From Candidatus Saccharimonadales bacterium (GTDB taxonomy: Bacteria > Patescibacteriota > Saccharimonadia > Saccharimonadales > UBA4665), in the NCBI GenBank assembly GCA_035479475.1, contig DATIIP010000033.1, forward strand, positions 2,449 to 66,448: a stretch of 64,000 nt of DNA, written 5' to 3'. Below the pieces are notes generated by a model. The model was given only the letters and a program-made list of their open reading frames with translations, was not told the DNA's origin and did no database searches. Shown piece by piece: positions 13,801 through 64,000 of this stretch (positions are counted from its first letter, which is position 1; the number at the start of each line of letters is the position of its first letter). The translations under genes were made by a program, and so were the position numbers.

Positions 13801-14674
13801 GCGCGGCCAGCACAAAGCCGCTAAATGCACCGTCTAACGCATACGCGCCATCTTGCCCGCTGACCGGTGTTAAATGAGCACCGGAAACCGCAAAACCATA
13901 CTGCGGCACAGCGTTCTTGTTGTGCAGCACGATGCTTTCCTTTACCTGCGAACCGCTGACGTTGTAGCGCAGGTCTACGCCGTTCCACAAATTGGCGTAG
14001 GTAACGGTTTGGGCCGAGCCCCTGCCCGATACAGTTGGATTCACAGCATTGGCGTCTACTGGCAGCATGCGAAAGGTTTGGCCGTCTTTGGCCAGTGCCA
14101 CGCCATAGGTTTTGGCATTGCCAAAGCTAGCTTGCCAGGCATTGGCCCGGGTACGCCACACACCGTCCGAGCCTTTTACGAGCGATGAATCAACATTTTG
14201 CCACTTGCCATTAGCGTCTTGATAGCTCGTGGCCTGGGCGGTATACACCACCGATGTTGTGCCATCGGCGTTGCGGTATTCCCGGCTATTGGCCGTCCGG
14301 CCAGTACTGAGTAATTGTACGTGTGTAAAGTTTTCACTCTTGCCCTTGGCGGCCGCGGCTTGCTGAGCAGCCAGCTGTGCGCTGAGTTTGGAAGAAAACG
14401 GCGCGCCAGCAGCCAGGCCCGAGCCACTAGCGGCCGGGGCGTACTGCAAGGCAGCATCGCTGGTAAGCGCTTGCGGCGTATGGCCACGTTTCGCCAAATA
14501 GTGCTCGATGTAGCTATAGAGCCCCGACGGGCCCGCGCTAGCAAACAGCAGCACCAGCAAAGAAAAAACACTGAACGTTCGGTAGCTCAGTGTTTTTACC
14601 CTTTTGGCTGGCCCCGTGCCGGTCCGAATACTATAGAGTTTTCTTCTGTTACCCCACGTTTTTATAAGCCGCAT
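7877..14674 (-). CDS. RHS/YD-repeat protein with N-terminal signal anchor, three PA14 domains and a short C-terminal variable module (polymorphic-toxin architecture)
   Basis: YD repeats ('YTYDNYNRL', 'YDAYGRL', 'YTYDKASRL', 'YEYDPFGN'). RHS core end '[41 protein letters not shown]'. ATG at 14674 has AGGAGG 4 nt upstream; the track start at 14692 is less likely. Confidence 0.9.
7880..8224 (-). other. C-terminal variable module of the RHS protein (115 aa after the core-terminal motif)
   Basis: Sequence after '...[11 protein letters not shown]'. It ends '[44 protein letters not shown]', which I recall as resembling DUF2599-type proteins (memory only). Confidence 0.6.
10140..10585 (-). other. 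PA14 domain 3, inserted within the YD-repeat region (approximate bounds)
   Basis: '[11 protein letters not shown]...[26 protein letters not shown]...RLDYYN'. Confidence 0.7.
11760..12161 (-). other. PA14 domain 2 of the RHS protein (approximate bounds)
   Basis: '[16 protein letters not shown]...[35 protein letters not shown]'; tandem to domain 1. Confidence 0.8.
12230..12635 (-). other. PA14 domain 1 of the RHS protein (approximate bounds)
   Basis: '[12 protein letters not shown]...[35 protein letters not shown]'. Confidence 0.8.
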
Positions 14675-14805
14675 AGTGCCTCCTTCAGTCAATCCTAAGC
14701 AAGCTCATACTCCCACGCTACGCTCAAAAGCATTGGTGAATTTTCTTACAATAGTTTGTTCATTTTTGTATATTTCAGACGCTTTTAAGCTTTCTAGATC
14801 GCAGC

Positions 14806-38134: not shown

Positions 38135-41100
38135 CTAGCGGCGGGGGCGCAGAACACCCGCAACCACTTCACCCCTAGTGAGGCCATTCGCTTCAGCAAA
38201 CGGAGTGAGCTCATCGATCATCCCTTCGCGCACACTAATGGCACTAGCGGTGTTCATGTAATTCCAAGCTGCCTGGTTGGTAGCATCGGTCTTCAGAGCA
38301 TTGAACTGTTCGTCAAAGATCCTCAGGATGTTATCTGGAGTCCGCTCTGCAGCCGGTAGTGCGTCGATCTGGCTTTGAACCTCAGTTCTAAAGCTGCCTA
38401 CCATCCGGGTGCGGGCAGTCGTAGCCTCGGCACGCTCAGCATCCATACGAGCAGTCCGTTCAGCGGGTGTTTCTGCTACTGGTGCAGGGGCTGCTGGGGC
38501 GTCACCAGGAGCGGGAGGCGTACCGGGAGCTGGAGGGGTGGTGCCAGGGACGGGAATCGGAGCACCACCACGAACGCCAGGAACTGTAACCGAAAGCGGG
38601 TTATCGCGGCGAATGGCAGCAGCGGCACCGGCACCGTGCCTAAAGTCTGCACTCACAGCAGCATCAGCGGCAACAGTAGCCATACCGGCTAAACCGCCCA
38701 GATACGGATAGTTATCGTAGAAGAAGCTACTCTCGCTTGGGTAAGCCGTGTGGGTTACCGATTCGTGGCCAGCTGGCGTAGTGCCGTGGATGAACTGGTC
38801 AATTACATTGTTTGGCACCACAGCAACGTGGGCGTTGTTACCGGCAGCCAGCTTCATGTACAGCGTCTGTTGGGCATTGTCCATTACACCGTGGAATGTC
38901 TCGTCGATGTGAACTACATTTGAACCATCAATATGATAGACGGCCATAGTGTGACCATCTGGAACTTCCAGGCCGCTGTGACCGTTAACCTTGTCGCCAA
39001 GATACCAGGTTGAACTGGTTGGGTGAATTTGGCCATTGTGACCAACGGCTAAGCCGTGAGTGACATCAACATGAGCGCCTGCGGCGTGGGCCTTAGAGGC
39101 ACCAGCAAGAATAGTCTGTTGTGCGTGAACCTCAGTACCTTGTGGAGCATTGTTCCAACCAGTACCGTCGGCATTAGTGTGCTGCATGTGCTGAATGAGC
39201 GTGTGGTGCGGGTTGGTACCAGCCACCTGATGAGACAGATCGCCCCAGTGAGCAGCATTCGAAGTATCGACATTGCCAACACCAGGAATATTGTGCGTAC
39301 CACTCGTATCAGGAGTAACGCTAGCACCTGCATGTTCAACGTGTCCGCTAGCTAGTGAATGAAGACCACCGGCTGCAGCACCACCAAAGAAGCCACCAAG
39401 CGCACCGAAGCCAATACCACGTGCAGTACGCCTAGCGCGTTCCTCGGTGTTAGCCTGGAAAACATCACCACTATGCGTGTCCATAATTCGGGCCACTTCA
39501 GTAGTGAAGCCATCGTAATCATCACCATACCGGCCGCGAGCTTCCTCGATACGAGCCAGCTGATCTTGAATACGAGTACGGAGCACGTCAGACCCCTGAG
39601 CGTTGGCTGAGCCACGGGAAAGGTTGGCAAACCACCGACCCATTACGCCACCACCAACGGCACCAGTAGCCGCACCCTTGCCAGCACCAATAAGTGCAGC
39701 CCACAATACAGCCGTTGAGCCACCAGAGGCAGCGAAACTTACGCCTACTGCAGCGGTCATGGCACCATATAGGAGGACCTTCCCTGCGGGACGTGACAGG
39801 AAGCGGAGGAAGCGGTTGCGGCCGACTCTTTCAGCAATGCGTTGACCACGTGTCTTCTCTTCGGCCACTTCGGTCTGCTGACGCTCGCCTACCATAGTCC
39901 AAGCAGTTTGCTTGTTGAGAATCCTTTGACCACCACTACCTGGCTCAGCGGCCAGTGCAGCATCAAATGCTCGGCGGGCAAGTAGGTAATCGCGTTCTAG
40001 CTCGGCACGATTGCCTGCGCCGGCACCGCTTTCCAAGGCGTGCTTGGCACGAGCCAGGTCCACGATAGCCCGTTGGGTATCTGCAGAGAAGGTATCGAAT
40101 TCAGGCGTGCGCAGTGGAGTCGGCTCTGGTTCTGGATCACCAGTTTCAGCAGGTGCAGCGGGAGCATCGGCTGGGCGCGTTACACCCGGCACATCGGCTG
40201 GAGCGAGGGCGCTAGGATCATTACCAACCAAGCGACGAACAGCTGCAGCAGTAAGCGCAGTGCGAAGGCCGTTCATGTGACGGTCACGGACAGCGGCGAA
40301 ACGGGCCTGAGCATCAGCAAGCTGGGCTTCTAGAGCAGTGACGGCTAGGGCGTCGCCTCGACGGCGTGCTGCCTCGAGGTCGCTCTCTAGAGTAGCAATC
40401 TGCGCTTCGTGGCGAGCGTTGATTGAAGGCTCGTCACCTGCCTCGCCTTGTCCACGAGTGCGGGCCAATTCTGCACGGGCAGCCTGCTGCATAGCAGTCA
40501 GCTCTGTGCCATTGATGTTGGCGTTTGCAATAAACCGCTCCAGACGTGCTCGATCAGCATCAGACAAGTCTGCAGGATCAGCGCCGAACAGCTCTACGTT
40601 CCTTAAGGCTAGTTGCATCTTGCGGTTGACGCCGTTATTGACATCGCGCAGAGCTTCGATGGTACCACGAGTAAAGTCGATGGAGCCAGTGGCCAGCGCC
40701 CATTGGTCTGAAGTTAGACCAGGAATAACACCGGCATCTGGTACGGCTTCGTCACGTGTACGAGTACGGCGATCACCAGGTGCTACGCCAGTAACTCCTT
40801 CGGCTCGGGCGATAGCGTCTTCACGGGCTTCAATACGGCGATCTAGCAGGGTTGGGGGGCGCCCCTCTTGGGCACGCATAAAGTTGTTATAAAACCAGCG
40901 CTCTTCGGGATCTAGAGCTGCGATAGCTCGGGCAACGTCTACACCAGTGTGAGGGCCACCCCCAGCAACTCCTACGCGGGCATGTACCGGGCCGGTTGCA
41001 CGATAGTGACCGATGGCACTTTCAATCAAACCCATCCGCTCGGTTATCTGATCGGGAGTCATTGCTAGTACTCCCTGCAAGCGGCGCATGCTTTGCTCAC

Positions 41101-41308
41101 CTTCTGTACCAGGGCGAGCAGCGTCAGACAAAACATCGGCCGCTATAGGAGCAACCATGTTTTCGGCAATTGCGGTTTGTACGTTGCGATTAAGCAGGAA
41201 TTCGTTGCGGTCTCGGTTCACTGGAACACCAGCTACGCGAGCAGCCCTGTCCGCCTCGTCTTGAGCCGCGCGTGCCTGGTCCATTGCTTGTACGATTCGT
41301 TCACTCAT
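38135..41308 (-). CDS. 1057-aa orphan membrane protein: Ala/Arg/Glu-rich N-half, Gly-zipper TM segments, His-rich domain, Pro-rich linker, helical C-terminus
   Basis: Long ORF with no strong competing frame. TM candidates 'VLLYGAMTAAVGVSFAA', 'AVLWAALIGAGKGAATGAVGGGVMG', 'GIGFGALGGFFGGAAAGGL'. Confidence 0.75.
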   Translation of the reverse strand: MSERIVQAMDQARAAQDEADRAARVAGVPVNRDRNEFLLNRNVQTAIAENMVAPIAADVLSDAARPGTEGEQSMRRLQGVLAMTPDQITERMGLIESAIGHYRATGPVHARVGVAGGGPHTGVDVARAIAALDPEERWFYNNFMRAQEGRPPTLLDRRIEAREDAIARAEGVTGVAPGDRRTRTRDEAVPDAGVIPGLTSDQWALATGSIDFTRGTIEALRDVNNGVNRKMQLALRNVELFGADPADLSDADRARLERFIANANINGTELTAMQQAARAELARTRGQGEAGDEPSINARHEAQIATLESDLEAARRRGDALAVTALEAQLADAQARFAAVRDRHMNGLRTALTAAAVRRLVGNDPSALAPADVPGVTRPADAPAAPAETGDPEPEPTPLRTPEFDTFSADTQRAIVDLARAKHALESGAGAGNRAELERDYLLARRAFDAALAAEPGSGGQRILNKQTAWTMVGERQQTEVAEEKTRGQRIAERVGRNRFLRFLSRPAGKVLLYGAMTAAVGVSFAASGGSTAVLWAALIGAGKGAATGAVGGGVMGRWFANLSRGSANAQGSDVLRTRIQDQLARIEEARGRYGDDYDGFTTEVARIMDTHSGDVFQANTEERARRTARGIGFGALGGFFGGAAAGGLHSLASGHVEHAGASVTPDTSGTHNIPGVGNVDTSNAAHWGDLSHQVAGTNPHHTLIQHMQHTNADGTGWNNAPQGTEVHAQQTILAGASKAHAAGAHVDVTHGLAVGHNGQIHPTSSTWYLGDKVNGHSGLEVPDGHTMAVYHIDGSNVVHIDETFHGVMDNAQQTLYMKLAAGNNAHVAVVPNNVIDQFIHGTTPAGHESVTHTAYPSESSFFYDNYPYLGGLAGMATVAADAAVSADFRHGAGAAAAIRRDNPLSVTVPGVRGGAPIPVPGTTPPAPGTPPAPGDAPAAPAPVAETPAERTARMDAERAEATTARTRMVGSFRTEVQSQIDALPAAERTPDNILRIFDEQFNALKTDATNQAAWNYMNTASAISVREGMIDELTPFAEANGLTRGEVVAGVLRPRR

Positions 41309-46787: not shown

Positions 46788-47690
46788 TTAATCGGCGGGC
46801 TGCAGAGCCGTGCTGACGGCCACGATTGATTCCTCGGGGTGGTAGGCATCGAAGCTCATAGTGTGCCATCCCAGGGCGGCAGCGCCACCTAGGTTTACCT
46901 TATCGTCATCTACTAACAGCAGCTCGCTTGGTGATACGCCAGCACGTTCGGCGGCGATTTCGTACATCCGGTTTTCGGGCTTGAGGGCGTGGACCTCTGA
47001 TGAGTCGACAATGGCGTTATAGTGCACCTGAGGCAAAATGCCGCGCTCCAGCATGGCGCTGGCTTGGCCGGGCATGGCATTGGTGAGGATCCCGATTTCG
47101 TAGTTTTCGGCCACCCATTCCACTAGCTCGTCCATGCCGGGCGTCTGTTCGATGGCTTGGAGATAGTACTTGTTCCAATCGACCATCATGTTGAGGCGCT
47201 CGGCCAACACGGTGTTGAGCTGGTCAATGCTGACATCACCGCGGCAGACGGCGTTGTTATGCTGCCAGTAGAGTGTTTCGACGGTCTCGAAGGGTACGCC
47301 GCTTTCTTCGGACAGTAGGGTAAAGGCGCGGGTGGTGGCGCCACGGACCAGGCAGCCGTTCATATCGAAGTAGACAAAACGGACGCCATTTTTGGAGACT
47401 TTCTTGCTTGGTTCTACCGGGGTGTGCGATTCGGCAGCTAGTGGCAATGGTTTGCCGGTGATGACGTCCCGTAGCAGCTCGTCGAGGCTGACGCCAAGGG
47501 TAGCTGCCAGGTGTTTGATGGTAAAAACTGACGGTGCACGAATGGCACCCCGCTCGATTTTGGCGAGCGTGGAATAACTAAGGCCGGATTTTTGACACAA
47601 CCCTTGCTGTGTTAGCCCGGCCCGCTTGCGGGCGAGCTGCAATACGCGCCCCAGGCGCATTTCCTCGGTGAGCACTCCACCCGTGTCCAT
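46788..47690 (-). CDS. XRE-family HTH domain fused to a HAD-like hydrolase domain
   Basis: 'LARKRAGLTQQGLCQKSGLSYSTLAKIERG' plus 'VYFDMNGCLV ... ILTNA ... LLVDDDKVNLGGA'. Confidence 0.75.
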   Translation of the reverse strand: MDTGGVLTEEMRLGRVLQLARKRAGLTQQGLCQKSGLSYSTLAKIERGAIRAPSVFTIKHLAATLGVSLDELLRDVITGKPLPLAAESHTPVEPSKKVSKNGVRFVYFDMNGCLVRGATTRAFTLLSEESGVPFETVETLYWQHNNAVCRGDVSIDQLNTVLAERLNMMVDWNKYYLQAIEQTPGMDELVEWVAENYEIGILTNAMPGQASAMLERGILPQVHYNAIVDSSEVHALKPENRMYEIAAERAGVSPSELLLVDDDKVNLGGAAALGWHTMSFDAYHPEESIVAVSTALQPAD

Positions 47691-49160: not shown

Positions 49161-49250
49161 TGGCGGAGAGGGAGGGATTCGAACCCTCGATAGGTTTGAC
49201 CCTACACACGATTTCGAGTCGTGCGCCTTCAACCACTCGGCCACCTCTCC
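49161..49250 (-). tRNA. tRNA-Ser (anticodon CGA), long variable arm, CCA encoded
   Basis: 'GGAGAGGTGGCCGAGTGGTTGAAGGCGCACGACTCGAAATCGTG...GGTTCGAATCCCTCCCTCTCCGCCA'; cloverleaf checked by hand. Confidence 0.9.
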
Positions 49251-49357
49251 ATACCCGCCTATTTTAACAGATTAGGCCGCGAATAGGGCAGGCTAGCTTT
49301 TTTGGACTGTCTGTGCTAGAATTACCCCTGTTGCACGTATTGTATCGCGCCAGATGT

Positions 49358-49434
49358 GCACCCGTAGCTCAGCTGGATAGAGCGTTGGCTTGCGGAGCCA
49401 AAGGTCGTAGGTTCGAATCCTGTCGGGTGTACCA
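49358..49434 (+). tRNA. tRNA-Arg (anticodon GCG), CCA encoded
   Basis: 'GCACCCGTAGCTCAGCTGGATAGAGCG TTGGC TTGCGGA GCCAA ...GGTTCGAATCC...CGGGTGTACCA'. Confidence 0.88.
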
Positions 49435-50444: not shown

Positions 50445-52019
50445 ATGCGGACAGGGGAGCGATGGCAATGGTTTTGGGCACAGCAGCGATTACTCGCCTA
50501 TGGATGCGGGACATTGCTGGTGAGCACGTGGACACTGCTGCGATTTTTCACCACTCGCACCACGTTCGACCTGGTGAGCCAACAGGTAATTGTGCATCAG
50601 TGGCTGCAGGGCGCTATGACGCCAGCACACATGGGACAAACGGCCTACGTGCTGAAGATGCTGGTTTTGTACGTACCGCTCGATCTACTGCCCGGCTCGC
50701 CGCGCCTCAAGCTGATAGCAATAACGCTGGCAATTAATATTGCAACGTTTGTATTGCTTGGCGTGGTGCTGGAACGGCTGCTGCGCGAATTTGGTGGACG
50801 GGTACGCAGTGTGCTGTATGCAGCGCTGGTAGGGTTGAGTGCCATTGCCGGGTCGGTGTTTTGGATTGGCTTTGCCAATTCCCGCAATTTAGAGGTGGTC
50901 GGCGGCGTCTTGTGGATGTACTTGGGGCTGCGTTATATATGGCGGCAAAGCTGGCGGCTGGCGATAAGCTTGGTGATCTTGGGCGGTTTGCTGTTTTTCG
51001 ACGACCCTTTGCAGTTTTATATGACGGCACTGCCGCTTTTGGTGTACGGCGTGGCGCTAGCAGCGGCAGGGCAGTACTCAATACGAGCAGCCGGTAAACT
51101 GCTGGGTCTAAGCCTGGCAGCTTGGGGATTAGCCCACTTGCTGGCGATAGCGATGGGTCACTGGTTGCAACTGAGCTTTACTGATACCGGTGGCCTAGCC
51201 TCACACTCATGGTCAGCGAGTTGGCTGGTACAAAGTGTGGCTGGAGTGGCAAAAGCAGTTCTAAGCCTGTTCGCCGGAGGAGCCGACGCTGGCAGGGCGC
51301 GCGAGCTTGCCAATATTGGCCTGTTGGGGTTAGGCCTTGCCGCCCTGGTGTATAACGCGGTAAAACGGTTGGTGCCGAGGCGGCTGATTGCATTCTTGGC
51401 ATGCTGGGTCGCGGTCGATCTGGCAGTGTATGCCGCTAGTGGACAAGCCGTGCACGGTGCGGCTACCTCACGCTACCTCATCATGCTGGCCCCGGCGGCT
51501 CTAGTGGGCCTGGGGATGATGCGTTGGCCACGACACCCCTGGAGTATTAAATTGGCGGTAACGGTGATGGTAGCAGGCCTGGCTCTGAATGTAGGAGCAC
51601 TGGGTAGTAGCCTGCTGCGTCACTGGGACGGTAGCTTTCCGGCTGACGCGCAGCAGGCCAGCGTCTATCGATATGCGCAGGCGCATCCGAAGCTGCATGT
51701 TTATACCAGCATTGATACGGCCATGGCAGTGCTTTATCTGCACAACCTACCAGCACAACGCAGCCTCCCGGTAGGATGTCTGGATGGAAAACTAGTACGC
51801 ACTCACTATTCGATGGACCGCGCCTTTGCTGATAGTAGTCGAACGCCAGGTGCCGTAGCGGCAATCGTCTTGGACGGTACGAGCATCCAAAACAGCCCGA
51901 ATGTCTGTACGACGAGCAGTATCAGCTCAGAATTCGGCGCACCCATCAGGCTGGCGCACACCGACAATAGCAGCGTGGTATTGCTATATCGGCAGGCAGC
52001 TTTGAGGCTGCCCGACTAG
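50445..52019 (+). CDS. Polytopic membrane protein (about 12 TM) with a C-terminal soluble domain; possible GT-C-type glycosyltransferase
   Basis: Hydrophobicity pattern only, plus neighbourhood (GtrA, PIG-L fusion). Confidence 0.6.
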   Translation: MRTGERWQWFWAQQRLLAYGCGTLLVSTWTLLRFFTTRTTFDLVSQQVIVHQWLQGAMTPAHMGQTAYVLKMLVLYVPLDLLPGSPRLKLIAITLAINIATFVLLGVVLERLLREFGGRVRSVLYAALVGLSAIAGSVFWIGFANSRNLEVVGGVLWMYLGLRYIWRQSWRLAISLVILGGLLFFDDPLQFYMTALPLLVYGVALAAAGQYSIRAAGKLLGLSLAAWGLAHLLAIAMGHWLQLSFTDTGGLASHSWSASWLVQSVAGVAKAVLSLFAGGADAGRARELANIGLLGLGLAALVYNAVKRLVPRRLIAFLACWVAVDLAVYAASGQAVHGAATSRYLIMLAPAALVGLGMMRWPRHPWSIKLAVTVMVAGLALNVGALGSSLLRHWDGSFPADAQQASVYRYAQAHPKLHVYTSIDTAMAVLYLHNLPAQRSLPVGCLDGKLVRTHYSMDRAFADSSRTPGAVAAIVLDGTSIQNSPNVCTTSSISSEFGAPIRLAHTDNSSVVLLYRQAALRLPD

Positions 52020-54622
52020 AGCGGGACGCCCTGTTGGTATTCACGAGATAAGTAGAAGCTATAGGTGGTAGCTTGACACTGCAGCATAGAATGGCACGTG
52101 CCGCTATCATGCTGGCCATAGGCAAAGAAAGCGGCTATTTTTTGATTTAGTTCATCGCCAGTGACATTTGGAGCGTAGCCATGGATGGGATAGCCGATGT
52201 AGTGCTTAACCGGAATGGTGACGGCGCCGCCAAAATGCTGGAAATCGTACTGGTCGGCAGCCTCTTGGGTAAGCCGGCTGGTATTGATATGGTCGCTATG
52301 ATCGGGGTAGGGCGTGGGGACAGCATCCGCCTGGGTGTGGATTTCGGCCGGTTCGTAGATATCCATAAGAAGGACAAGTGCGGCCACTAACTGCTGGCGC
52401 GTATAGCTGGACTGGTTATCGACACTCCGAAGCCGTTCAATAACACCGGCCTGCAACTTGGCCATGCTCTGGTAATCGGAGCCTGGAAAGCCCTGGCCTT
52501 GCAAGTTGCCGTCTGGCAGGTTCAGAAAGACAAGCGAAACTTGGTTGCTATCCCGCGGGGTAGCAACCGTGAGATACTCGCCTGGAGCAACTTGTACCGT
52601 TTGATGATCCCAGACGTTTTTGATGTGCAGCATGGCACTATAGGCAGCCTCTGCGCCAAGCTGGCGGCCCAGCCAATAAAACTTATCTTGGCCATCGTCA
52701 CCGGCGGTCAGAAATACCGTACGCACACAGTAGCCAGCCTGTAGGGTATGGAGCAAGTCAGGGCTTAAGAAGAGTAGGTCATCGTCTTCGTGGGCAACAA
52801 AGTTCATGACAGTGGGCTGGGTGCAGTTGGTTTTGAGCAGCTGATCGGGTGCCACCGGGGCGAGAGTAACGTGAGCTAGAATGTCCGCCGCAGACCTAGG
52901 GTGGCTACCGGCGTCGTAAAAAAGCAGCGCACCTTTAGGGTGTGTGAGGGTGCCGGCAATGATTTGAGTGGCATTGGGCACGCCGTAGGCAGCGGTGACC
53001 TGTTGGAGCGTACAACTTGGATAGTTGGTTAGGCTGCCATCGAATGTGATGAGATAGGCAAAGCTGTGCCGCCTGAGATCTGGCTGCCAGGTCGTGCTGC
53101 TGAGGGCAGTCAGCGGTGTCGTACAGCTATAGAGCGGCATAACATTGAGCTTGCCGTGAGCAGCTAATTTTATGGGAAGTACACGCCAATAATCACCCAC
53201 CAACACATCAACGTGATGATGTTCAAGCGCCTGCGTCACGAGTTTGTTGCGGTACGAAACATCGTTCAAAGCGGCCGTTTGTGTACTGGCAACCGTACGT
53301 GCAGTCACGCTAGCGGCAAGGCTGCTGAGCATTAATCCCAAACCGATAAGTAGTAGCCATTTTGGCTGACGTACCACATGGCCACGAAGCACCGTAGTGG
53401 CACCAATCATCAACGCAAAGAAGCCGATGGTAAGATAGCGGGCATCGACCGCATAGTAATGCTTACTTACTACAAACAGCCCGAACGCGGCGGCAGTAGA
53501 ACAAAATAGCGTGAGTGACAGCTGGGTGGCAACCGGCAGAGCAGTGTGGCTATCGAAGTGATGGAGTGAGCCTCGAACTAGCCGCCAAATGAGCCATAGT
53601 CCTAGTAGCACCAGAACGACCGCGACAAGATAGAGTGCCCCGCTTGGATGAGTCAGGCTGGCCGCGAGCGCATGCGGTAATTGGGCGATTACCCGATTGT
53701 CGTAAACGGGGTTGGCACCGGCATTAGTAAGAAAGCCCAGCAGGCTATAGGCGACGCTGAGCAGTAAGTCTTTGCCGCCAATACCGGTACCATAAGGACT
53801 AACGCTGCCGCCGGTCAAATGGGTAAAATGCAGCCCTGTTACGAGCAGTGTGATCAATAGACAGATGATACCGGCACCAATGCTAGCAATCAGCCAGCGT
53901 ACGGCAAAAGCGACCATAGCCAGATTGGTAAACAGAGCGTACAACACCAGCGCCACCGCCGCTCCACCCAGGCTGAGACCTAGAAACAGGCGGTCACTGG
54001 CAATAAGAATGCCCAGCAGAATCACACCAAACAGGAACAACGGGCTGCGCAGCCTCCGACCACGAATAAAGAGCAGCAAGCACGCCAAGTAGACGATATA
54101 TTCTAGGTTACGCGTTGTGAGCATAGCCATATTGACCGGCAGAATACCACCGGCGTATGGCTGCGCCGGTACAAGAAGAAGCATCAGTGCGAGGGCCAGA
54201 TACAATGTACCGAGTACCAGTGGACGGCGTTCAATCTTGTGGAGTAGAAATGCCAGGGCGGCCACCGTCAGCACACTGACACTCACCGTAGCAATTAGAA
54301 GGTGTGCGCTTGTAACTCCAGCCAGGCCGAGCCACCAAAAGATAGGCCACTTAAGCAGTAGGCTATGGGCGCCGGGAAAGGTAGCCCCCTGAAACGTTTG
54401 CCAGTTGGTGAAAAGATATGGATCTGATAACTGATCGGCATTGTGAATTTGCAGCCGGGCACCGAGCACCGCCCAAAAAACGACGCTTGCGAACAATAGT
54501 ACAGTGGCTATACCGGCGTAGACTGCCGGAAGACGGGGTGGCCTAGCAAGACCACCCAACAGCGCCACCAACCGGTGCCACAGCTTGAGACAAAATGCAT
54601 TTAAGGGACTTAGTTCTTCCAC
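52016..54622 (-). CDS. Fusion protein: N-terminal polytopic membrane domain + central domain + C-terminal PIG-L/LmbE-type deacetylase
   Basis: 'VMNFVAHEDDDLLFLSPDL...VFLTAGDDG' matches AHPDDE...TxGD. 'YPDHSDH' matches the HPDH motif. More than 10 TM helices in the first ~450 aa. Confidence 0.8.
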   Translation of the reverse strand: MEELSPLNAFCLKLWHRLVALLGGLARPPRLPAVYAGIATVLLFASVVFWAVLGARLQIHNADQLSDPYLFTNWQTFQGATFPGAHSLLLKWPIFWWLGLAGVTSAHLLIATVSVSVLTVAALAFLLHKIERRPLVLGTLYLALALMLLLVPAQPYAGGILPVNMAMLTTRNLEYIVYLACLLLFIRGRRLRSPLFLFGVILLGILIASDRLFLGLSLGGAAVALVLYALFTNLAMVAFAVRWLIASIGAGIICLLITLLVTGLHFTHLTGGSVSPYGTGIGGKDLLLSVAYSLLGFLTNAGANPVYDNRVIAQLPHALAASLTHPSGALYLVAVVLVLLGLWLIWRLVRGSLHHFDSHTALPVATQLSLTLFCSTAAAFGLFVVSKHYYAVDARYLTIGFFALMIGATTVLRGHVVRQPKWLLLIGLGLMLSSLAASVTARTVASTQTAALNDVSYRNKLVTQALEHHHVDVLVGDYWRVLPIKLAAHGKLNVMPLYSCTTPLTALSSTTWQPDLRRHSFAYLITFDGSLTNYPSCTLQQVTAAYGVPNATQIIAGTLTHPKGALLFYDAGSHPRSAADILAHVTLAPVAPDQLLKTNCTQPTVMNFVAHEDDDLLFLSPDLLHTLQAGYCVRTVFLTAGDDGQDKFYWLGRQLGAEAAYSAMLHIKNVWDHQTVQVAPGEYLTVATPRDSNQVSLVFLNLPDGNLQGQGFPGSDYQSMAKLQAGVIERLRSVDNQSSYTRQQLVAALVLLMDIYEPAEIHTQADAVPTPYPDHSDHINTSRLTQEAADQYDFQHFGGAVTIPVKHYIGYPIHGYAPNVTGDELNQKIAAFFAYGQHDSGTCHSMLQCQATTYSFYLSREYQQGVPL

Positions 54623-54624
54623 GG

Positions 54625-55044
54625 CTAGTCTATGGCCACGAGCGCTTCGCTCTGTTTAAAGATATGCGTTTTATATAGATAAAAGTTCCAGACAGTGGTG
54701 ATGCCAAGCGCTAAAGTACGGGTAATCACCGCTGGCAAGTGCTGTTGGAGCAGCTTGGTTAGCAGTACCGAAAAGGTTAGGTTCCATACAATCAACAGGG
54801 CAGTGGCGACCATTTGCGGGATCAGAATACGGTGGTGCATTCGCTTATCCCCAAACGTCACCAGTTTCTGCAAAAAGAATGACACCAACGTACCCAAGCA
54901 GAAACTGATAGCCACCGCCCAGACGGCACTTGCCCCTAATCGCTGTGCCACTACAATGACAGCCAGCTCAAACAAATACACGCTACCGCCAATAATAAGA
55001 TAGCGGTAGCCGGGTCGTTTGAGTAATTGGGTAAGCTGTAGCAC
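54625..55044 (-). CDS. GtrA-family membrane protein
   Basis: 139 aa, four TM helices; 'YRYLIIGGSVYLFELAVIVV' and 'FSVLLTKLL'. Confidence 0.8.
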   Translation of the reverse strand: MLQLTQLLKRPGYRYLIIGGSVYLFELAVIVVAQRLGASAVWAVAISFCLGTLVSFFLQKLVTFGDKRMHHRILIPQMVATALLIVWNLTFSVLLTKLLQQHLPAVITRTLALGITTVWNFYLYKTHIFKQSEALVAID

Positions 55045-57069: not shown

Positions 57070-57162
57070 TGGCGGAGAGAGAGGGATTCGAACCCTCGCA
57101 GGGACTCGCGCCCCTCTAACGATTTAGCAAACCGTCCCCTTCAGCCACTTGGGTACCTCTCC
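57070..57162 (-). tRNA. tRNA-Ser (anticodon GCT), CCA encoded
   Basis: 'GGAGAGGTACCCAAGTGGCTGAAGGGGACGGTTTGCTAAATCGT...GGTTCGAATCCCTCTCTCTCCGCCA'. Confidence 0.9.
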
Positions 57163-57315
57163 TTAAACTTGAGACACCCATTTCATGGGCTTCTCAATGC
57201 GCGGGGCCTTGGCAAAGCCAAGGTCTCCGGCTGCTCTTCCCGGCCAGTGGTAAGCCGTTTCCTTAAGCAATGGAAACTATTTTAACAGATAGTTTTCTCT
57301 GTTAAAACGGTTTTT
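57163..57315. ncRNA. Structured 153-nt spacer between two tRNA-Ser genes; candidate small RNA, family unassigned
   Basis: Several strong hairpins (GGCCTTGGC-aaa-GCCAAGGTC; GTTTCC-N9-GGAAAC; TTTTAACAGA-N8-TCTGTTAAAA). No ORF. Confidence 0.25.
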
Positions 57316-57405
57316 TGGCGGAGAGAGTGGGATTCGAACCCACGGTACCCTTGCGGGCACGACGGTTTTCAAGACCGTTACCTTCAACCGCTCGGTCATC
57401 TCTCC
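57316..57405 (-). tRNA. tRNA-Ser (anticodon TGA), CCA encoded
   Basis: 'GGAGAGATGACCGAGCGGTTGAAGGTAACGGTCTTGAAAACCGT...GGTTCGAATCCCACTCTCTCCGCCA'. Confidence 0.9.
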
Positions 57406-57461: not shown

Positions 57462-58133
57462 CTAGGCCTGGGCAAAGACAATGGCATCAACGCGAGCAGC
57501 GCCGGCACGCCGCAACACGCGGGCAGCAGCCTCCAGCGTGGCACCGGTGGTGAGGACGTCATCGATCAATATAATGTGGCGACCGCGAATTTCGTTGACT
57601 TGCACAGGCCGAAAAGCTGCTTGCAGCTGTTCGAGCCGCTGACTGCGGCGCGATCCCACCTGATGCGCTTGACCGACGCGGCGGAGCACTATGCGGCGAG
57701 GTGTATTCGTCAACCGTGAAACCTCACGGGCGAGCAAGGCCGCGTGATCGTAACCGCGCGCACGAACTCGGGACGTAGCGGTTGGAACGGGTACTAGCAC
57801 CGCGTCGCCCGAAAAGCCAGCCAGTTGTCTGGCAAGCAAAAGTGCTATTTCAGCGACGCCCGCCTGCGCCCGCTCATATTTCATGCGGTGAATCAGCTCT
57901 TTAGCCAAGCCACGATATTGGACACACGCCATAACCTGATGTAGGGGGGTGTCCTTTCGACAATCGGCGCAAACTGCACCATCATTAGTCGCGGTTCTAC
58001 ACCGATAGCACCGAGAGGGAACAGGCTGAAGCAACTGCAAGCAATTTGCGCAAAGTAATCGGTCATCTTCGCTGCCACATCCCAAACAGATATGGGGTGC
58101 AATCAAGCGGACCAGCCTCTCTAAAATGCTCAT
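57462..58133 (-). CDS. comFC: ComF-family protein (ComFC-like phosphoribosyltransferase)
   Basis: N-terminal Cys clusters 'CLGCGS...CANC...CYRC...CADC' and the PRT motif 'ILIDDVLTTGAT'. Confidence 0.85.
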   Translation of the reverse strand: MSILERLVRLIAPHICLGCGSEDDRLLCANCLQLLQPVPSRCYRCRTATNDGAVCADCRKDTPLHQVMACVQYRGLAKELIHRMKYERAQAGVAEIALLLARQLAGFSGDAVLVPVPTATSRVRARGYDHAALLAREVSRLTNTPRRIVLRRVGQAHQVGSRRSQRLEQLQAAFRPVQVNEIRGRHIILIDDVLTTGATLEAAARVLRRAGAARVDAIVFAQA

Positions 58134-58284: not shown

Positions 58285-58779
58285 ATGGCGCGACGTAACC
58301 GCGACGATGACCTACTACTGGAAGAAGACGAGCTGACTGCAGCATTTTTGGGTGACGATGATGGCGTAGTAGCTGCAGCGAGCGACGACCCGACTGCCAC
58401 ACAGCCGGCCACTATAACTGGCACCGACGAGTGGGATGAAGACGAAACGGTACTACCCGGCCAACTAGCTGTTGACGTTTATGAGACCAAGGAAAAGCTA
58501 GTCGTCAAAGCCCGCACCGCAGGTGTTAATAAGGGCGACCTAGACGTTAGCATTGCCGATAATACGCTCAGTATTCACGGTACGCTTTCTGCTGGCACCG
58601 ATGACGCGGTTGAGAATTACTTTGTGCAAGAGTGCTACTGGGGCGAGTTTAGCCGCAGCATTGCTTTGCCGGTCCCCGTCAAGGAAGAGGACATTGAAGC
58701 TGTGCTGAAGGACGGCGTACTGACCATCAGCTTTACCAAGGTCAAACAAGACACCGTTAAGAAGATCCAGGTCATTTAG
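58285..58779 (+). CDS. Hsp20/alpha-crystallin small heat-shock protein
   Basis: 'VDVYETKEKLVVKARTAGVNKGDLDVSI.DNTLSIHG...FSRSIALPVPV...AVLKDGVLTISF'. Confidence 0.92.
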   Translation: MARRNRDDDLLLEEDELTAAFLGDDDGVVAAASDDPTATQPATITGTDEWDEDETVLPGQLAVDVYETKEKLVVKARTAGVNKGDLDVSIADNTLSIHGTLSAGTDDAVENYFVQECYWGEFSRSIALPVPVKEEDIEAVLKDGVLTISFTKVKQDTVKKIQVI

Positions 58780-58894: not shown

Positions 58895-59311
58895 CTAAGG
58901 ACTCTGGGTTACACGGTTTAGAACGAACTGAACAATAAACTGTGCCAGCGCGACTACCACCAGGCCAATGAGGGCGTAGATGATAGTGTTTTTGGCACTT
59001 GATATATTGCTGCTTTCGCCACCTGAGGTAATGTAGCGGAAACCACCGACAATGATCATGATAACCGATACGACACCAACGACAAGCGAGAAGATGTTGA
59101 TGACGGTAGTAATGATGCTGTTGATTTTGTCGGTACCATTTGAGGTTGTGGAACAACCAGAAGTGTCACTAACACTCAAATTAGCTCCCTGACAAAGGTT
59201 ATCTTGAATGCTGGGAGCAGCTGACACAAGAGCAGGGACCGCTATTGGCACAGCGATAAGCGATACGGCGCTCACTAGGCCAACAACGAAGTTCTTAAGA
59301 TTCTTAAGCAT
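58895..59311 (-). CDS. T4SS-pilin-like small protein, paralog 6 of 6 (last in operon)
   Basis: Signal peptide, Cys pair 'CQGANLSVSDTSGC', core 'VVSVIMIIVGGFRYITSGGESSNISSAKNTIIYALIGLVVVALAQFIVQFV'. Confidence 0.8.
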   Translation of the reverse strand: MLKNLKNFVVGLVSAVSLIAVPIAVPALVSAAPSIQDNLCQGANLSVSDTSGCSTTSNGTDKINSIITTVINIFSLVVGVVSVIMIIVGGFRYITSGGESSNISSAKNTIIYALIGLVVVALAQFIVQFVLNRVTQSP

Positions 59312-59360
59312 ATAGCGTAGGTTCCTTCCTTTTTTGCTAGTACTTACTTGATTTATACCA

Positions 59361-59885
59361 TTAACTTAATGGGGATTTCAAGATATAGCGCTGATCAATG
59401 ACAGCGAATTCATTAATGCGTACCAAATTGGCGCCAACTTTAACACATTTATTCTTGTCGTTCAGGGTCTGGCCACTCGGGCAATCCGGTGCATTGACCT
59501 TGCCGAGTACAAACTGAACGATGACTTGGGCGAGCGCCACAATAACGAGCCCAACAATAGCATAGATCATGGTGTTCTTGGCGCTCGCAATCGCACTACT
59601 CTCACCACGAGAAGTTACATATTTAAAACCCGCCACAATGATCATGATAACGGACGCAATGGCGACGACGACACTCAGTAAGTTGATGATGACAGTTATA
59701 ACGTGGTCTATAGAAATGCCGTTACTTGGCTGCTGAGAACAGTCCGCATTACTGCCAAGCGCCGTACAGACGGTTGATTTCGGCGTTGCCGCCGCGACTG
59801 ACATGGGCGCTAACAAGCCACCAATACCCAGCCCTAGCAGCAGCGTAGTTAGTATGATCCCAATTCGCTTCATAATCTTCCTCAT
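59361..59885 (-). CDS. T4SS-pilin-like small protein, paralog 5, with an extra Cys-containing C-terminal extension
   Basis: Core 'IASVIMIIVAGFKYVTSRGESSAIASAKNTMIYAIVGLVIVALAQVIVQFV'. Tail 'CPSGQTLNDKNKC'. Confidence 0.8.
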   Translation of the reverse strand: MRKIMKRIGIILTTLLLGLGIGGLLAPMSVAAATPKSTVCTALGSNADCSQQPSNGISIDHVITVIINLLSVVVAIASVIMIIVAGFKYVTSRGESSAIASAKNTMIYAIVGLVIVALAQVIVQFVLGKVNAPDCPSGQTLNDKNKCVKVGANLVRINEFAVIDQRYILKSPLS

Positions 59886-60295
59886 AATTTACTTACTATC
59901 AGTATTACTGCGCCCTCGGCCACCGCGATAATCACTAGGCCTACCGTTGCACCAATCACCGCCTTGCGAGCACCGGCTGCTTTGTTGGCATCTCCGTTTG
60001 AAGTGACAAACTGAAAACCACCAACAATGATGATAATTACAGCCGCAATGCCGGCCAGGGTGGCAATTACCAGGGAAGCTTTTTTAAGAATACCGTTCGA
60101 CCCGGAAATAGGGTCTCCGGTGCCGGCAGAACAGGCTGTTGAATCACTGGAACCATTACCCGTGGTACAGGCGCAGGCTAAGGGGTTACTCGTAACGTTA
60201 CAGATCTGCCCCGCCGGTGCCGCGCTAACGGTCGCCAGTGGCCCGCTTATGGCAAGCAGTAAAACCAGCAGTAAGCCATACAGAAGTCGCCTCAT
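59882..60295 (-). CDS. T4SS-pilin-like small protein, paralog 4
   Basis: Signal peptide, 'CNVTSNPLACAC...ACS', core 'IIIIVGGFQFVTSNGDANKAAGARKAVIGATVGLVIIAV'. ATGA overlap with paralog 5. Confidence 0.75.
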   Translation of the reverse strand: MRRLLYGLLLVLLLAISGPLATVSAAPAGQICNVTSNPLACACTTGNGSSDSTACSAGTGDPISGSNGILKKASLVIATLAGIAAVIIIIVGGFQFVTSNGDANKAAGARKAVIGATVGLVIIAVAEGAVILIVSKL

Positions 60296-60604
60296 TTATC
60301 CAATTCCTTTCACTACAAATGTCACGATAGAATAAGCGGCCATGGTAACTACCAGACCGACAAGTGCGTACACAATGGTGCTCTTGGCCTGTGCGGTACC
60401 GTTGGGATCGCCGTGAGCCAGGATGTAGCGAAAGCCAGCGATTACTATAATGAGTACGCTGATAGACGCCGTGAAGGCAAAGATGATACCAAGAGCAGTG
60501 GGGATGGTGTTAGTGGTGGTGGTCTGCGGCAGACAGCTGGTATCGATGGGTGCACTGTTCGCGCCACACTCGCCAGCAGCTGCAAATAATCGTGGTATGA
60601 GCAT
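60296..60604 (-). CDS. T4SS-pilin-like small protein, paralog 3 (short N-terminus)
   Basis: 'CGANSAPIDTSC', core 'LIIVIAGFRYILAHGDPNGTAQAKSTIVYALVGLVVTMAAYSIVTFV'. Confidence 0.75.
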   Translation of the reverse strand: MLIPRLFAAAGECGANSAPIDTSCLPQTTTTNTIPTALGIIFAFTASISVLIIVIAGFRYILAHGDPNGTAQAKSTIVYALVGLVVTMAAYSIVTFVVKGIG

Positions 60605-60613
60605 ACTTTATCC

Positions 60614-61027
60614 TCAGCTCGTTCCTAGTTTATGGCCGATGAATGCAACTACCGAGGCAGCTATTAGTGCTATAGCCAGGCCGATCAAGGCATTGATGAT
60701 GGTCTGCTGAGCCTTCTTGGTAGCGTCTGGGGCACCCTGACTGGTCGTGTACTGAACACCACCGGCAATCACATACCCTACCGCTACATAGGCGGCTACT
60801 ATGATTAGATCGTTCAAGATGGCTAAGACAATTAGCAGAATCGCACTGTGTGCGCTGAATATACCTGGTTGTGTACCGTCGCTGACCGGGTCAAAGTTAA
60901 CAATACGACAGGAGCCGCCCTCGTCACGCAGTGTTAGATACTCATCCCAAGGTGCCAGGCCCAAAAACCTGGGCTTGGCGCAGGTTAATGCAAAAGTATT
61001 GAGATAGGGCAGTAGTAGTGAGAGCAT
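60614..61027 (-). CDS. T4SS-pilin-like small protein, paralog 2 (divergent N-terminal region)
   Basis: 'FLGLAPWDEYL', core 'YVIAGGVQYTTSQGAPDATKKAQQTIINALIGLAIALIAASVVAF'. Confidence 0.7.
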   Translation of the reverse strand: MLSLLLPYLNTFALTCAKPRFLGLAPWDEYLTLRDEGGSCRIVNFDPVSDGTQPGIFSAHSAILLIVLAILNDLIIVAAYVAVGYVIAGGVQYTTSQGAPDATKKAQQTIINALIGLAIALIAASVVAFIGHKLGTS

Positions 61028-61048
61028 TATTTTATTCTACTCCTTTCA

Positions 61049-61531
61049 TTAGAACAGATTGCCCCCCGGCACTAAGAACTTGAGCAGGCTGAACAGAAAT
61101 ATAAAGGTAACTAGAGCAATAAGGGCATTGCGAATGCGATTCTTGGCGGCCGTGACTTTCTGCGGATCGCCCCCTGAGCTACCGTACTGGATGCCGCCAT
61201 AGACGATGGATATTACCACCGCCACTCCAACCAAGGCAGCCAAGAAATCAATAAAGGGGTTCAGGTAATTCTTGAACAGGTCACACTGGGAAATATCCGC
61301 ACAGTTTCCTCCATTTGTGCCCGAGCCAACGGCACTACATTGGCTTAGGTTTGCCACCTTGGTGGTGCCATCGGGGCAGGTTACACAAGCCACAGGCTTA
61401 TGGGTAGTGGGGTCGGTGCAAGTTGGAGCGGCAGCAGCGGCTACCTTGAATTGGCTTACCACCAGCGTGGGCGCTAAGATGGAAACAATTAGGGCCAGGC
61501 AAGCAAACGTCAGTTTTAGTTTTTGTGACAT
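61049..61531 (-). CDS. T4SS-pilin-like small protein, paralog 1 (first in operon, Cys-rich head)
   Basis: Signal peptide, seven Cys in 'CTDPTTHKPVACVTCPDG...CSAVG...CADISQC', core 'ISIVYGGIQYGSSGGDPQKVTAAKNRIRNALIALV'. Confidence 0.75.
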   Translation of the reverse strand: MSQKLKLTFACLALIVSILAPTLVVSQFKVAAAAAPTCTDPTTHKPVACVTCPDGTTKVANLSQCSAVGSGTNGGNCADISQCDLFKNYLNPFIDFLAALVGVAVVISIVYGGIQYGSSGGDPQKVTAAKNRIRNALIALVTFIFLFSLLKFLVPGGNLF

Positions 61532-61602: not shown

Positions 61603-64000
61603 GTGCCTTCAAAATTTTATTGAGACCTGATACACTTATGGTGAACGTAGCAAGAAGGCCGATACTTAAGGTGAAACCAAAAAGCAGTGTTAAGCGGTGG
61701 GGTTATTTAGCAATTCTGCTGCTTTTCTTGACCACCACTCTAACTAGTATGGTTAGCTTGTTTATGCCAGCCATTTTGTCGGCGGCGGCAACCGGTGCTC
61801 ACACAATTTATGGTGACAACACTACCTCTTGCGGTGCCTCATTGGCCTTACTTAACCCTGGCGATACGCAAGCCAAAACGGTTTTAGGAACCGGTGTTGG
61901 GGATCCGGCCAGTGAGCTATATAACCTGACCCAGGGCATTTCTGGTGAGAGTGCCGGTGCTATAGCCACATTTAAAGACGTTTACAACAAGCAGGGTGTG
62001 TTAAACCTTGGCTTTGCCGACGCCGGCGGCGGCGCCAACAACTACGTGGCCTGCAACAATTCAATTACGTTTTTCCGTAAGGTTGTAACATCGGACCAGA
62101 ATACATTCTATGGGGTATGGCGGTGTGTTCCACCGGGCGCTACCGGTAGCACGCTGTGCCCTTCGGGCGGCGGGTTAACGTACAAGCTGGTGACTGCCAC
62201 CATCAATCCGAGTGCCAAAACTATGACGTTTAGCTGGCCGGGGGGCAACAATGGGGCGACCACTACAGCCACCATCAACGTGGCCGACCCTGATGGCGAC
62301 TTTGCGAATAGCCAGTATTTTAGCAATGGCGCCAGTGGCGGCACCTCACAAACTGTGGCAACTTGTTTATCAGTTAATCAGCACAATGATATTTCACAGT
62401 GTTTAAAAGGTAAGACAGCACGCTTTGTCGATACGGCACACATATCATTTGATAACGTAAGTTATGTAGCGAGCAGTTGGGGTGGTAATGACATTTATTA
62501 CACTGCCGAAAACGACCCCACCCTTACGAACCTGGGCGCCAAGTTCGATGTAAAAACAAATCATACCGATACCGACCTGAACATCGATGACCCCAGCAAG
62601 ATTAGCGACCTGGCAGACCTGCGCAAAACCCTAGGCGGCGGTTACAGAGCGAGCGTCGAGTACGACATTATTGGGAATAGCGGCACCGTTCCGGTGGATG
62701 CCGGGACGGGCAACACCAGCATCAACCAGGTGGCAAACTATTATTCCAACAGCTCCGACCCCAGTAGCGACTCTATCCAATTAGTGTTCACTAATGGAGC
62801 CGGCACTAACGAGGGTAGATTCTACGGTGTTTACAGCCGGTCTGACGCTACTTCTACGACGTTTACCTATGCAAACGGTGGGTATTCCTGTGGCAGTAGT
62901 GAGAAACCGCGGTTTGTGCTGTCACACAACCCAACTGCTGGAGAGGAAGATGGCAGCCACACGCTTACCGCTACATGGTATATTCAAACTAATAACGCCC
63001 CCTGTGGTGAAGAGGCCATACCTGTCACGATTCTATTGGAGCCGGTGGATGCCATTCCTCCTGCACTCAATGGCACCTGTGCCGCCGGTACCGATGCCAA
63101 CGGCAACTGTACCGGTGATACTGATGTCGCCATTGACTGCGGTACGGGTACACTGAACTGGATTGTCTGTAGAGTAATTGAGGCCGCCCTGGGTACGGTC
63201 GAAAAGCTCGATAACTTCATCATGAACACCCTGGATATTGACGTTAAGCCCATTTTCGATAACGTCGATAGCAACACCTACTACACCGCCTGGAACTCCT
63301 TCCGGGTAATTGCCATCGCTCTGCTGATAGTAGCCGGTCTGATAATGGTTGCCTCACAGGCTCTGGGCTTTGAGTTTCTCGACGCCTACACCATACGAAA
63401 AACCCTGCCGCGCCTGATTGTAGCTATTATTGGCATTTCGCTTTCCTGGCCGCTGATGCGCTACTGCGTCAACCTGTTCGACGCGCTTGGGTTTGATGTT
63501 CGGGCGCTTATATATCATCCGTTCAAAGGGTTGAATAGCCACTTTTCGATCAGCGTCGGTCTATGGTCTATGGTTGGCACTTTTGCGGCTGTGTGGCTGC
63601 TGGGCTGGGCATCGTTAACCTTTGCACTGAGCATCGCCCTGGCTATGTTTATTGGCTTTGTGACGCTGGTAGCCCGCCAGGTTGTCATTATTGTGCTGGT
63701 TATCTTGGCACCGATTGGGATTGCCTGTTACATTTTGCCGAACACTCAGCGGGCGTGGCGTATGTGGCACGAAAACTTCTTGGGTATGCTGCTGCTGTTC
63801 CCGATCATATCGGCTCTGATGGCAGCCTGCGATGTGTTTACAGCCGTGGCATTGAGCCATGGTGGTACTTCTACGGCCATGCTGATGGGGCAGGTTGGTG
63901 GCCTACTAACTCACTTTTCGGCACATCGTTTTCACCTGGTGCTACACAGTTTTGCTAATAACACGGGTGGTTTGGTTGCCAGCGGCACCGCCATTGGCTT
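61603..64000 (+). CDS. VirB6/TrbL-like polytopic membrane protein with a ~560-aa Cys-containing N-terminal ectodomain (3' end outside window; not in the supplied ORF track)
   Basis: Hand translation of frame 1 shows no stop from before 61603 to nt 64000. GTG at 61603 has GGGAGG 7 nt upstream (alternative ATG at 61639). C-terminal TM block includes 'VVIIVLVILAPIGIACYILPNTQRAWRMWHENFLGMLLLFPI'. Confidence 0.75.

Follow-up and report, generated by a model that had tools for sequence, protein, structure and literature searches.

Six tandem pilin-like genes beside a type IV secretion locus of Candidatus Saccharimonadales as candidate parts of one multi-pilin tube

The locus analysed here raises the question of why one bacterium should keep six different pilin-like genes side by side: as separate parts of one structure, or as a stock of interchangeable surface variants. 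The genes lie in a 64,000-nt stretch of chromosomal DNA (hereafter referred to as the window), where positions 58895-61531 of the minus strand are taken up by six back-to-back open reading frames (ORFs), designated P1 to P6 in transcription order. An original prediction, made from the sequence letters, had assigned them to the pilins of type IV secretion systems (T4SSs) common in genomes of the Candidate Phyla Radiation, and had offered both a heteropolymeric filament and a repertoire of surface-exposed variants as explanations. The phylogenetic setting had been correctly recognised, the DNA belonging to a Candidatus Saccharimonadales metagenome-assembled genome (MAG), and of the two explanations our evidence favours a heteromeric structure over interchangeable variants. 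We give a probability of roughly 0.6 to the reading that P1-P6 are non-redundant VirB2/TrbC-type pilins of a single T4SS tube, with P6 as its major subunit. Comparison across genomes speaks for six distinct parts fixed long ago and against spare variants, with P6 as the candidate for the abundant subunit and P1 as that for the strain-variable subunit facing the host.

Six pilins of one family beside type IV secretion genes

ORF calls placed all six genes where the original prediction had them, with the predicted lengths (102-174 amino acids, aa) and spacers (-4 to 49 nt). All are encoded on the minus strand. P1 (61049-61531, 160 aa) begins with a putative Sec-type leader, after which come the largest head of the six and the two-helix core, while P2 (60614-61027, 137 aa) starts with an atypical short uncharged leader and carries two conserved cysteines, C16 and C40. 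P3 (60296-60604, 102 aa) is short and almost headless, and its 11-residue leader-like N-terminus cannot be extended because an in-frame stop lies two codons upstream. P4 (59882-60295, 137 aa) has a putative Sec-type leader and four head cysteines; P5 (59361-59885, 174 aa; 170 aa in the NCBI call, which begins at the second ATG) has two head cysteines and a 44-aa C-terminal tail with a two-cysteine loop; P6 (58895-59311, 138 aa), the last and most conserved pilin of the array, has two head cysteines. The intergenic spacers from P1 to P6 measure 21, 9, 0, -4 and 49 nt, with the start of P4 directly abutting the stop of P3.

Multiple alignment of the six proteins revealed a common, gap-free core of about 70 residues, in which V, G, G, A, A and L occupy invariant alignment positions within the two-helix motif that had been proposed, and N-terminal parts unrelated in both length and sequence. 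Overall, the paralogues are 21-30% identical to P1. A clade-specific hidden Markov model (HMM) of the core, iterated on relatives, matched exactly these six ORFs (E 3e-19 to 4e-31; 1.6e-23 for P2 and 3.2e-19 for P4) and no further ORF in the 64-kb window. Hydropathy profiles showed two long hydrophobic helices separated by a short polar loop, and the N-termini of P1, P4, P5 and P6 combine a charged start, a hydrophobic stretch and an AxA-like site. In the AlphaFold2 (AF2) model of P6, a hairpin of helices 56-95 and 100-135 was predicted with pLDDT (predicted local distance difference test) values above 90 and the head was disordered; the AF2 model of P1 contains a leader helix (residues 3-23), a small beta head (37-59, pLDDT 74-88) and a hairpin of helices 84-118 and 123-153. 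A lipoprotein identity of P2 was also considered and was rejected because no consistent lipobox was found among its orthologues, several of which have T or V before the conserved cysteine.

The Pfam search by which the proposed family could be checked was run and agreed with it: T4SS_pilin (PF18895) was the top match for all six proteins, with E-values down to 1e-13, and four of them scored above the curated (gathering) cut-off of 26.6 bits (P1 35.0, P3 39.7, P5 39.4 and P6 51.4 bits). For P6, 4446 homologues were found, with identities reaching 88%, and the NCBI product name of both P1 and P6 is already 'pilin'.

The genomic context points the same way. Divergent from the array lies a VirB6/TrbL_3-like gene (61638-64000, plus strand; weak TrbL match, E 9e-4), which runs off the end of the window, so that the window contains the first 787 aa of its product. 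An exact match to the P1 protein was found on a 300,891-bp contig of the Candidatus Saccharimonadales MAG GCA_964506955.1. On the source contig the VirB6-like product has a full length of 1279 aa, carries PF19590 (TrbL_3) and is encoded by the first gene of a T4SS machinery cluster, followed by genes for PrgI, a TraC-like protein and a VirB4-like ATPase, and by a gene for a 1117-aa product. Searching the VirB4 protein against one genome per species gave 80 loci from Saccharibacteria, their VirB4 proteins being 84-95% identical. A pilin array was present at the same place, linked to VirB6 and VirB4, in about 50 of these 80 loci, with a modal count of six genes; loci with fewer than six pilins were mostly cut at the flank. 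Larger arrays, which emerged from the comparison of copy number that had been suggested, contain seven genes in two loci and nine in two others; all of the extra copies are P6-like and sit at the distal end of the array, and expansion seems confined to the P4-P6 group.

This linkage is decisive for one alternative, namely that the six are generic two-transmembrane proteins unrelated to type IV secretion, whose Pfam matches reflect hydrophobic composition. Such a view could draw on side matches to CydB, DctQ, MacB and other transmembrane families (E 1e-3 to 1e-1), and on the automatic annotation of many homologues by JGI (Joint Genome Institute) as 'cytochrome bd-type quinol oxidase subunit 2'. 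However, PF18895 was the best match in every case, the core is gap-free with a conserved polar loop, and the array is invariably linked to VirB6 and VirB4 in about 50 genomes. Because of this synteny, with VirB6, PrgI, TraC-like and VirB4 genes adjoining the array, we regard the alternative as effectively refuted and barely credible.

Fixed positions, conserved cores and variable heads

Whether the six paralogues are old or recently multiplied was assessed in 27 genomes, comprising 26 relatives with clean six-gene arrays and the window. In 156 of 162 cases the best cross-genome match of a pilin was the pilin at the same array position. The six exceptions were matches of position 5 to position 6 (five times) and of position 4 to position 6 (once); each of the 27 genomes has a position-2 orthologue, and positional orthology for P4 held in 26. 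Owing to these same-position matches we consider the six paralogues to be ancient, separately retained lineages in a fixed order. The original prediction had described P5 and P6 as near-identical in the core and as products of a recent duplication, and neither statement could be upheld: local alignment gave 61% identity over 82 residues, which makes them the closest pair of the six, and a recent duplication is ruled out by their positional orthology across the 27 genomes.

Rates of divergence differed strongly along the proteins. Orthologue cores are 69-70 residues long, contain no indels and have mean pairwise identities of 0.39-0.64 per class, the highest figure being that of P6 (0.64), whereas orthologue heads are variable in length and 0.08-0.25 identical. 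Between the window and the closest relative found (its P6 is 88% identical), the nonsynonymous rate (dN) was 0.16-0.67 in heads versus 0.03-0.15 in cores. The synonymous rate (dS) was saturated (>1.3 or undefined) even against this relative, and so the head-versus-core comparison that had been suggested as a dN/dS ratio is limited to dN, which is higher in the heads.

Across loci, the median identity with the protein encoded in the window was 88% for VirB4, 81% for the TraC-like protein, 78% for the Hsp20 encoded beyond the array, 48% for PrgI, 39-51% for pilins P1-P6 and about 32% for VirB6. The low figure for VirB6 holds between species whose VirB4 is 85-95% identical. The VirB6-like protein is as fast-evolving as the pilin heads, and because of this it too may be turned towards the host with its large extracellular part.

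Cysteine content sets the heads apart from the cores. The number of head cysteines is even in 93-100% of orthologues at every position, and cysteine makes up 2.9-5.7% of head residues versus 0.53% in the housekeeping proteins of the window used as background; the cores are almost free of it. Even counts and enrichment together support disulfide-bonded, extracytoplasmic heads. In P1-P6 of the window the total cysteine counts are 7, 2, 2, 4, 4 and 2; one of the seven in P1 lies inside the putative signal peptide, leaving six in the mature head. The earlier claim that paired cysteines, 2 to 7 per copy, are always present thus describes this genome, but does not extend to the class occupying position 3 (93-119 aa), in which 15 of the 27 orthologues have no head cysteine. 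Exactly two head cysteines were counted in all 27 P6 orthologues. The added C-terminal cysteine loop noticed on one paralogue is that of P5; C-terminal two-cysteine tails recur in three other position-5 orthologues and, more weakly, in two more. Given this recurrence, the window tail, the longest among position-5 orthologues, is an extreme form of a recurring trait of the class.

P1 represents the most variable class of the array, with orthologue heads of 32-159 aa and homologues of 94-270 aa in total length. Its best non-self database homologue was 63% identical over 75% of the query, and for its distal head no alignment was obtained in 5.8 billion proteins. On two contigs whose P6 is identical and whose P2-P5 are near-identical, the P1 proteins have 223 and 153 aa, respectively, the difference being a module of about 70 residues with four cysteines.

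Several observations speak for a repertoire instead, that is, for interchangeable subunit variants serving different host strains or surface variation. The paralogues are only 21-30% identical with unrelated heads, the heads diverge fast between species, the P1 head module differs between near-identical strains, and array size varies through P6-like copies. A repertoire has also been put forward in the literature for VirB2 of Bartonella and Anaplasma and, in PMC12102498, for Patescibacteria. Orthologous lineages kept in a fixed order in 27 genomes, however, are unexpected of a set prone to turnover, and class-specific traits (the short P3, the two-cysteine P6 and a conserved head motif in P2) are stable as well.

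Promoters and a proposed multi-pilin tube

The original prediction had envisaged a single operon closed by a terminator. An intrinsic terminator was indeed located 3' of P6 (58838-58870, minus strand), consisting of a 14-bp stem, a 5-nt loop and a U-tract, with a folding energy of -25.3 kcal/mol (z = -4.0; 0/200 shuffled sequences folded as well). Upstream of P1, a promoter was recognised at 61569-61541 (minus strand; TTGATT-17 nt-TATAGT, 9/12 consensus positions). Between the end of its -10 element and the ATG lie 9 nt, and no Shine-Dalgarno sequence is present, for which reason the P1 transcript is probably leaderless. The pattern TTGnnn-17-TATAGT occurs at the same distance in 15 of the 27 genomes (14 relatives and the window).

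A second promoter lies within the array, at 59381-59352 on the minus strand, overlapping the end of P5 and the beginning of the P5-P6 spacer. It reads TTGAAA-18 nt-TG-n-TATAAA, a sigma-70 type with an extended -10 element, and is followed in the window by a AAAGGAAGGAA ribosome-binding site. The motif TGnTATAA was found 35-49 nt upstream of the P6 ATG in 18 of the 27 genomes, where 0.0115 occurrences per 150 nt are expected, and most genomes without it carry GTAGTATAAGT instead. Across genomes a TTG-type -35 element lies 17-18 nt upstream of the extended -10, with a AAGAAAGG ribosome-binding site downstream, and the P5-P6 spacer is always the longest of the array (median 72 nt versus -4 to 9 nt for the others). 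The terminator was found by RNA folding and the P6 promoter by cross-genome comparison of spacers, both having been missed by a consensus scanner. Of the operon model, the terminator and the tight spacing of P1-P5 stand, but the conserved promoter in the P5-P6 spacer indicates that the array is probably not one simple operon. Judging from their tight or overlapping spacers, P1-P5 are probably co-transcribed and partly translationally coupled, while P6 probably has additional, dedicated expression.

The co-expression of P1-P5 implied by this spacing is a further argument against a repertoire. To this can be added that all six pilins scored as essential in a relative, the genetically tractable Southlakia epibionticum, a result to which a caveat regarding polarity of transposon insertions applies. 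With fixed positional orthology, tight co-expression and essentiality of the six all weakening the repertoire model, we judge it quite improbable.

How a multi-pilin tube might be built can be outlined as follows. Each pilin would enter the cytoplasmic membrane as a helical hairpin, its conserved positively charged loop (TSxGD/E...AK) facing the cytoplasm and both termini pointing outward. From there the subunits would be extracted by the VirB4/VirB6 machine, which would polymerise them into a short tube. If the solved F-type and T-type conjugative pili are taken as a guide, wall and lumen of the tube would be made up of the conserved helices and loop, and the variable, disulfide-stabilised heads, together with the C-terminal cysteine loop of P5, would decorate the outside and meet the host surface. 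Such an arrangement of outward heads and inward core fits the pattern of conserved core and variable head described above. P6 is probably the bulk subunit, because a conserved promoter serves it separately and no other pilin of the array is as strongly conserved, and P1-P5 are probably specialised subunits of lower abundance. Since its head is strain-variable, P1 would be the best candidate for the distal, host-contacting piece.

Several results weigh against this outline. P2 and P4 scored 21.6 and 23.8 bits with PF18895, below its cut-off, and matches to PF04956 (TrbC/VirB2; cut-off 27.9 bits) were all sub-threshold (P5 23.6, P6 23.4 and P3 17.4 bits), with P1, P2 and P4 giving no match to that profile at all; a precomputed PF04956 match is on record for most P6 orthologues, and kinship of the six pilins to TrbC/VirB2 is plausible. 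P2 and P3 appeared to have no classical Sec leader in a crude hydropathy test, by which a strong N-terminal hydrophobic segment was also absent in 16 of the 27 position-2 orthologues and in most of the position-3 class. A Foldseek search of the PDB with the AF2 models of P1 and P6 returned nothing at E <=0.001. The best pilin match was the archaeal conjugation pilus of A. pernix (8dfu), at rank 1 for P1 (E 2.1, TM-score 0.59 on the target) and at rank 28 for P6 (E 8.1); a helical hairpin is too simple a fold for comparison with solved conjugative pilins to discriminate. A profile search of PDB sequences likewise yielded transmembrane noise only (MacB, CydB). As dS is saturated, positive selection on the heads is not separable from relaxed constraint. 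The nomination of P6 as the major pilin is based on its promoter and on sequence conservation, and neither a filament of such pilins nor any other T4SS pilus has been seen in a Patescibacterium. Finally, in the transposon sequencing (Tn-seq) data from S. epibionticum, essentiality of upstream genes may be polar, and there are 11-15 insertion sites per gene.

Some of these points would suit a different arrangement, in which the hairpins stay in the cytoplasmic membrane as parts of the translocon and the heads contact the cell wall or the VirB6 ectodomain, so that no filament is made. According to PMC12102498, pili are not made by other monoderm T4SSs. For Saccharibacteria there is no report of a T4SS filament, and the filaments solved in M. 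amalyticus are the unrelated Pam pili. The structure search was non-specific, and the adjoining VirB6 is huge and evolves as fast as the heads. On the other hand, the family is homologous to the pilus-forming TrbC/VirB2 proteins (sub-threshold here, with PF04956 matches in most P6 orthologues), heads that are disulfide-rich and evolve fast are more in keeping with an exposed than with a buried surface, and a tube of 8.6-9.0 nm has been imaged in a Saccharibacterium. We therefore consider a purely membrane-resident role rather unlikely and retain the multi-pilin tube as the favoured reading.

The imaged tube invites a bolder form of the same proposal. In M. amalyticus, a Saccharibacterium, cryo-electron tomography (PMC11880426) showed a tube with a barbed tip, measuring 8.6-9.0 nm in width and 61-70 nm in length, between epibiont and host, which was termed a 'lance' or 'conduit'. 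The filaments solved in that organism are Pam pili with immunoglobulin-like domains, which are unrelated, and the Pam-pili paper does not mention the T4SS. It is a speculation, and one we rate as doubtful, that the six pilins with fixed roles make up this lance, P6, expressed from its own conserved promoter, forming the shaft, and the strain-variable, disulfide-knotted P1 head forming or decorating the tip, where it would determine host specificity. A structure of this kind, if real, would be without precedent both as a heteromeric VirB2-type pilus and as a T4SS pilus of a monoderm.

Surroundings of the array and comparison with known systems

On its far side the array adjoins an Hsp20 gene (58285-58779, plus strand; PF00011, 63.9 bits), as it does in 31 loci; we treat this gene as a marker of synteny and not as a functional part. 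Beyond it lie a ComF-type phosphoribosyltransferase gene (ComFC, 57462-58133) and then tRNA-Ser. The tRNA genes at 49161-49434 and 57070-57405 comprise three tRNA-Ser (cga, gct and tga) and one tRNA-Arg (gcg), and two of the tRNA-Ser genes adjoin ComFC, as tRNA-Ser does near the S. epibionticum array. The remaining window is ordinary chromosome, with genes for GroEL, ValRS, ArgRS, DnaG, RpoD, Ddl and a Mur ligase. A tblastn search of P6 against 72,556 plasmids, probing a conjugative-element origin, gave no match.

Four other minus-strand features were recorded in the window. An ORF of 2271 aa (7877-14692), in which three PA14 domains, GLEYA and RHS repeats are combined with DUF2599 at the C-terminus, has the appearance of a giant adhesin of the cell surface or of a toxin-like protein. 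The 1057-aa ORF at 38135-41308 belongs to no Pfam family and has only a spurious weak match to DEC-1_N. A protein of 868 aa that ends in a PIG-L deacetylase domain (52016-55044) adjoins a GtrA-family membrane protein; two relatives also keep this pair near the array, and it probably serves cell-surface glycan modification. The same two relatives share the fusion of an HTH_3 DNA-binding domain to a HAD hydrolase encoded at 46788-47690.

The array is another copy of a described and annotated system, one more instance that by itself changes nothing. The T4SS is among the few systems known to be essential to Saccharibacteria for living as epibionts (PMC11665869). P1-P6 are best read as belonging to a chromosomal T4SS of monoderm type (MPF-FATA-like) and as the counterpart of SEML1_0014-0019 in Southlakia epibionticum ML1. 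In Table S1 of Wang et al. 2023 (Cell, PMC10633639), SEML1_0013 is a VirB6-like gene on the minus strand and is followed on the plus strand by six genes for proteins of 132, 185, 103, 126, 127 and 138 aa, and then by Hsp20 (SEML1_0020), ComFC and tRNA-Ser, the whole layout spanning SEML1_0013-0022. All six pilins are listed there as growth-defect/essential/essential by Tn-seq, and it is for S. epibionticum only that such an array is known to be needed in epibiotic growth. Shared with the window are a tandem of six PF18895 pilins transcribed away from a large VirB6-like gene, a short third gene (103 versus 102 aa here), a last gene of 138 aa in both, and Hsp20 on the strand opposite to the array, followed by ComFC and tRNA-Ser. 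The differences concern the sizes of P1 and P2 (132 and 185 aa in ML1 versus 160 and 137 aa here), the 44-aa C-terminal cysteine-loop tail of the window P5, and the nature of the window organism, which is an environmental Saccharimonadales MAG. Orthology between the two arrays is based on layout and sizes, not on aligned ML1 sequences.

Such arrays have been surveyed more widely by Quinonero-Coronel et al. 2025 (Microb Genom, PMC12102498), and are also described in PMC12857230. In the survey, 441 arrays of 2-11 VirB2-like pilin genes are reported from 383 Patescibacteria assemblies, with enrichment in Saccharimonadia and a mean within-array identity of 25% (maximum 54%). Its authors cite the 'essential pilin array' of S. 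epibionticum and propose host-strain versatility, with the VirB2 paralogues of Bartonella and Anaplasma as precedent. The window array fits this description, with 21-30% identity to P1 and 61% between P5 and P6 in local alignment. The consulted parts of the survey contain no mention of fixed positional orthology, of heads with even cysteine counts or of a promoter before the last gene; these, together with the strain-level modularity of P1, are what is added here, a modest contribution.

A further likeness is to the Mbov_0395 family of pilin-like conjugal transfer proteins (NCBIfam NF045849) of the Mycoplasma integrative and conjugative element (ICE), itself a monoderm element of MPF-FATA type. 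All six pilins matched this model over the whole core (E 4e-9 to 8e-5), with scores (22.2-35.9 bits) below its cut-off of 40 bits, and the Mycoplasma family is single-copy. Nothing useful was found in the literature on that family. The matches bear on the origin of Patescibacteria pilins because, in the published view, monoderm MPF-FATA systems are without pilins.

The diderm pilins TrbC, VirB2 and TraA resemble P1-P6 in being small, with an N-terminal leader (putative in the six) and a two-helix hairpin joined by a short charged loop, and in being encoded beside VirB4 and VirB6. Here, however, the host is a monoderm and the machine is MPF-FATA-like, of a class normally without pilins; six non-redundant paralogues take the place of one; the heads are long and cysteine-rich; and no VirB5-type tip protein was identified. 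Similar in gene arrangement are the VirB2 genes of Bartonella and Anaplasma, where several divergent copies likewise lie side by side in a host-associated bacterium. Those copies are thought to be variable alternatives, whereas the six described here are old lineages in fixed positions, belonging to an array that is scored essential in a relative.

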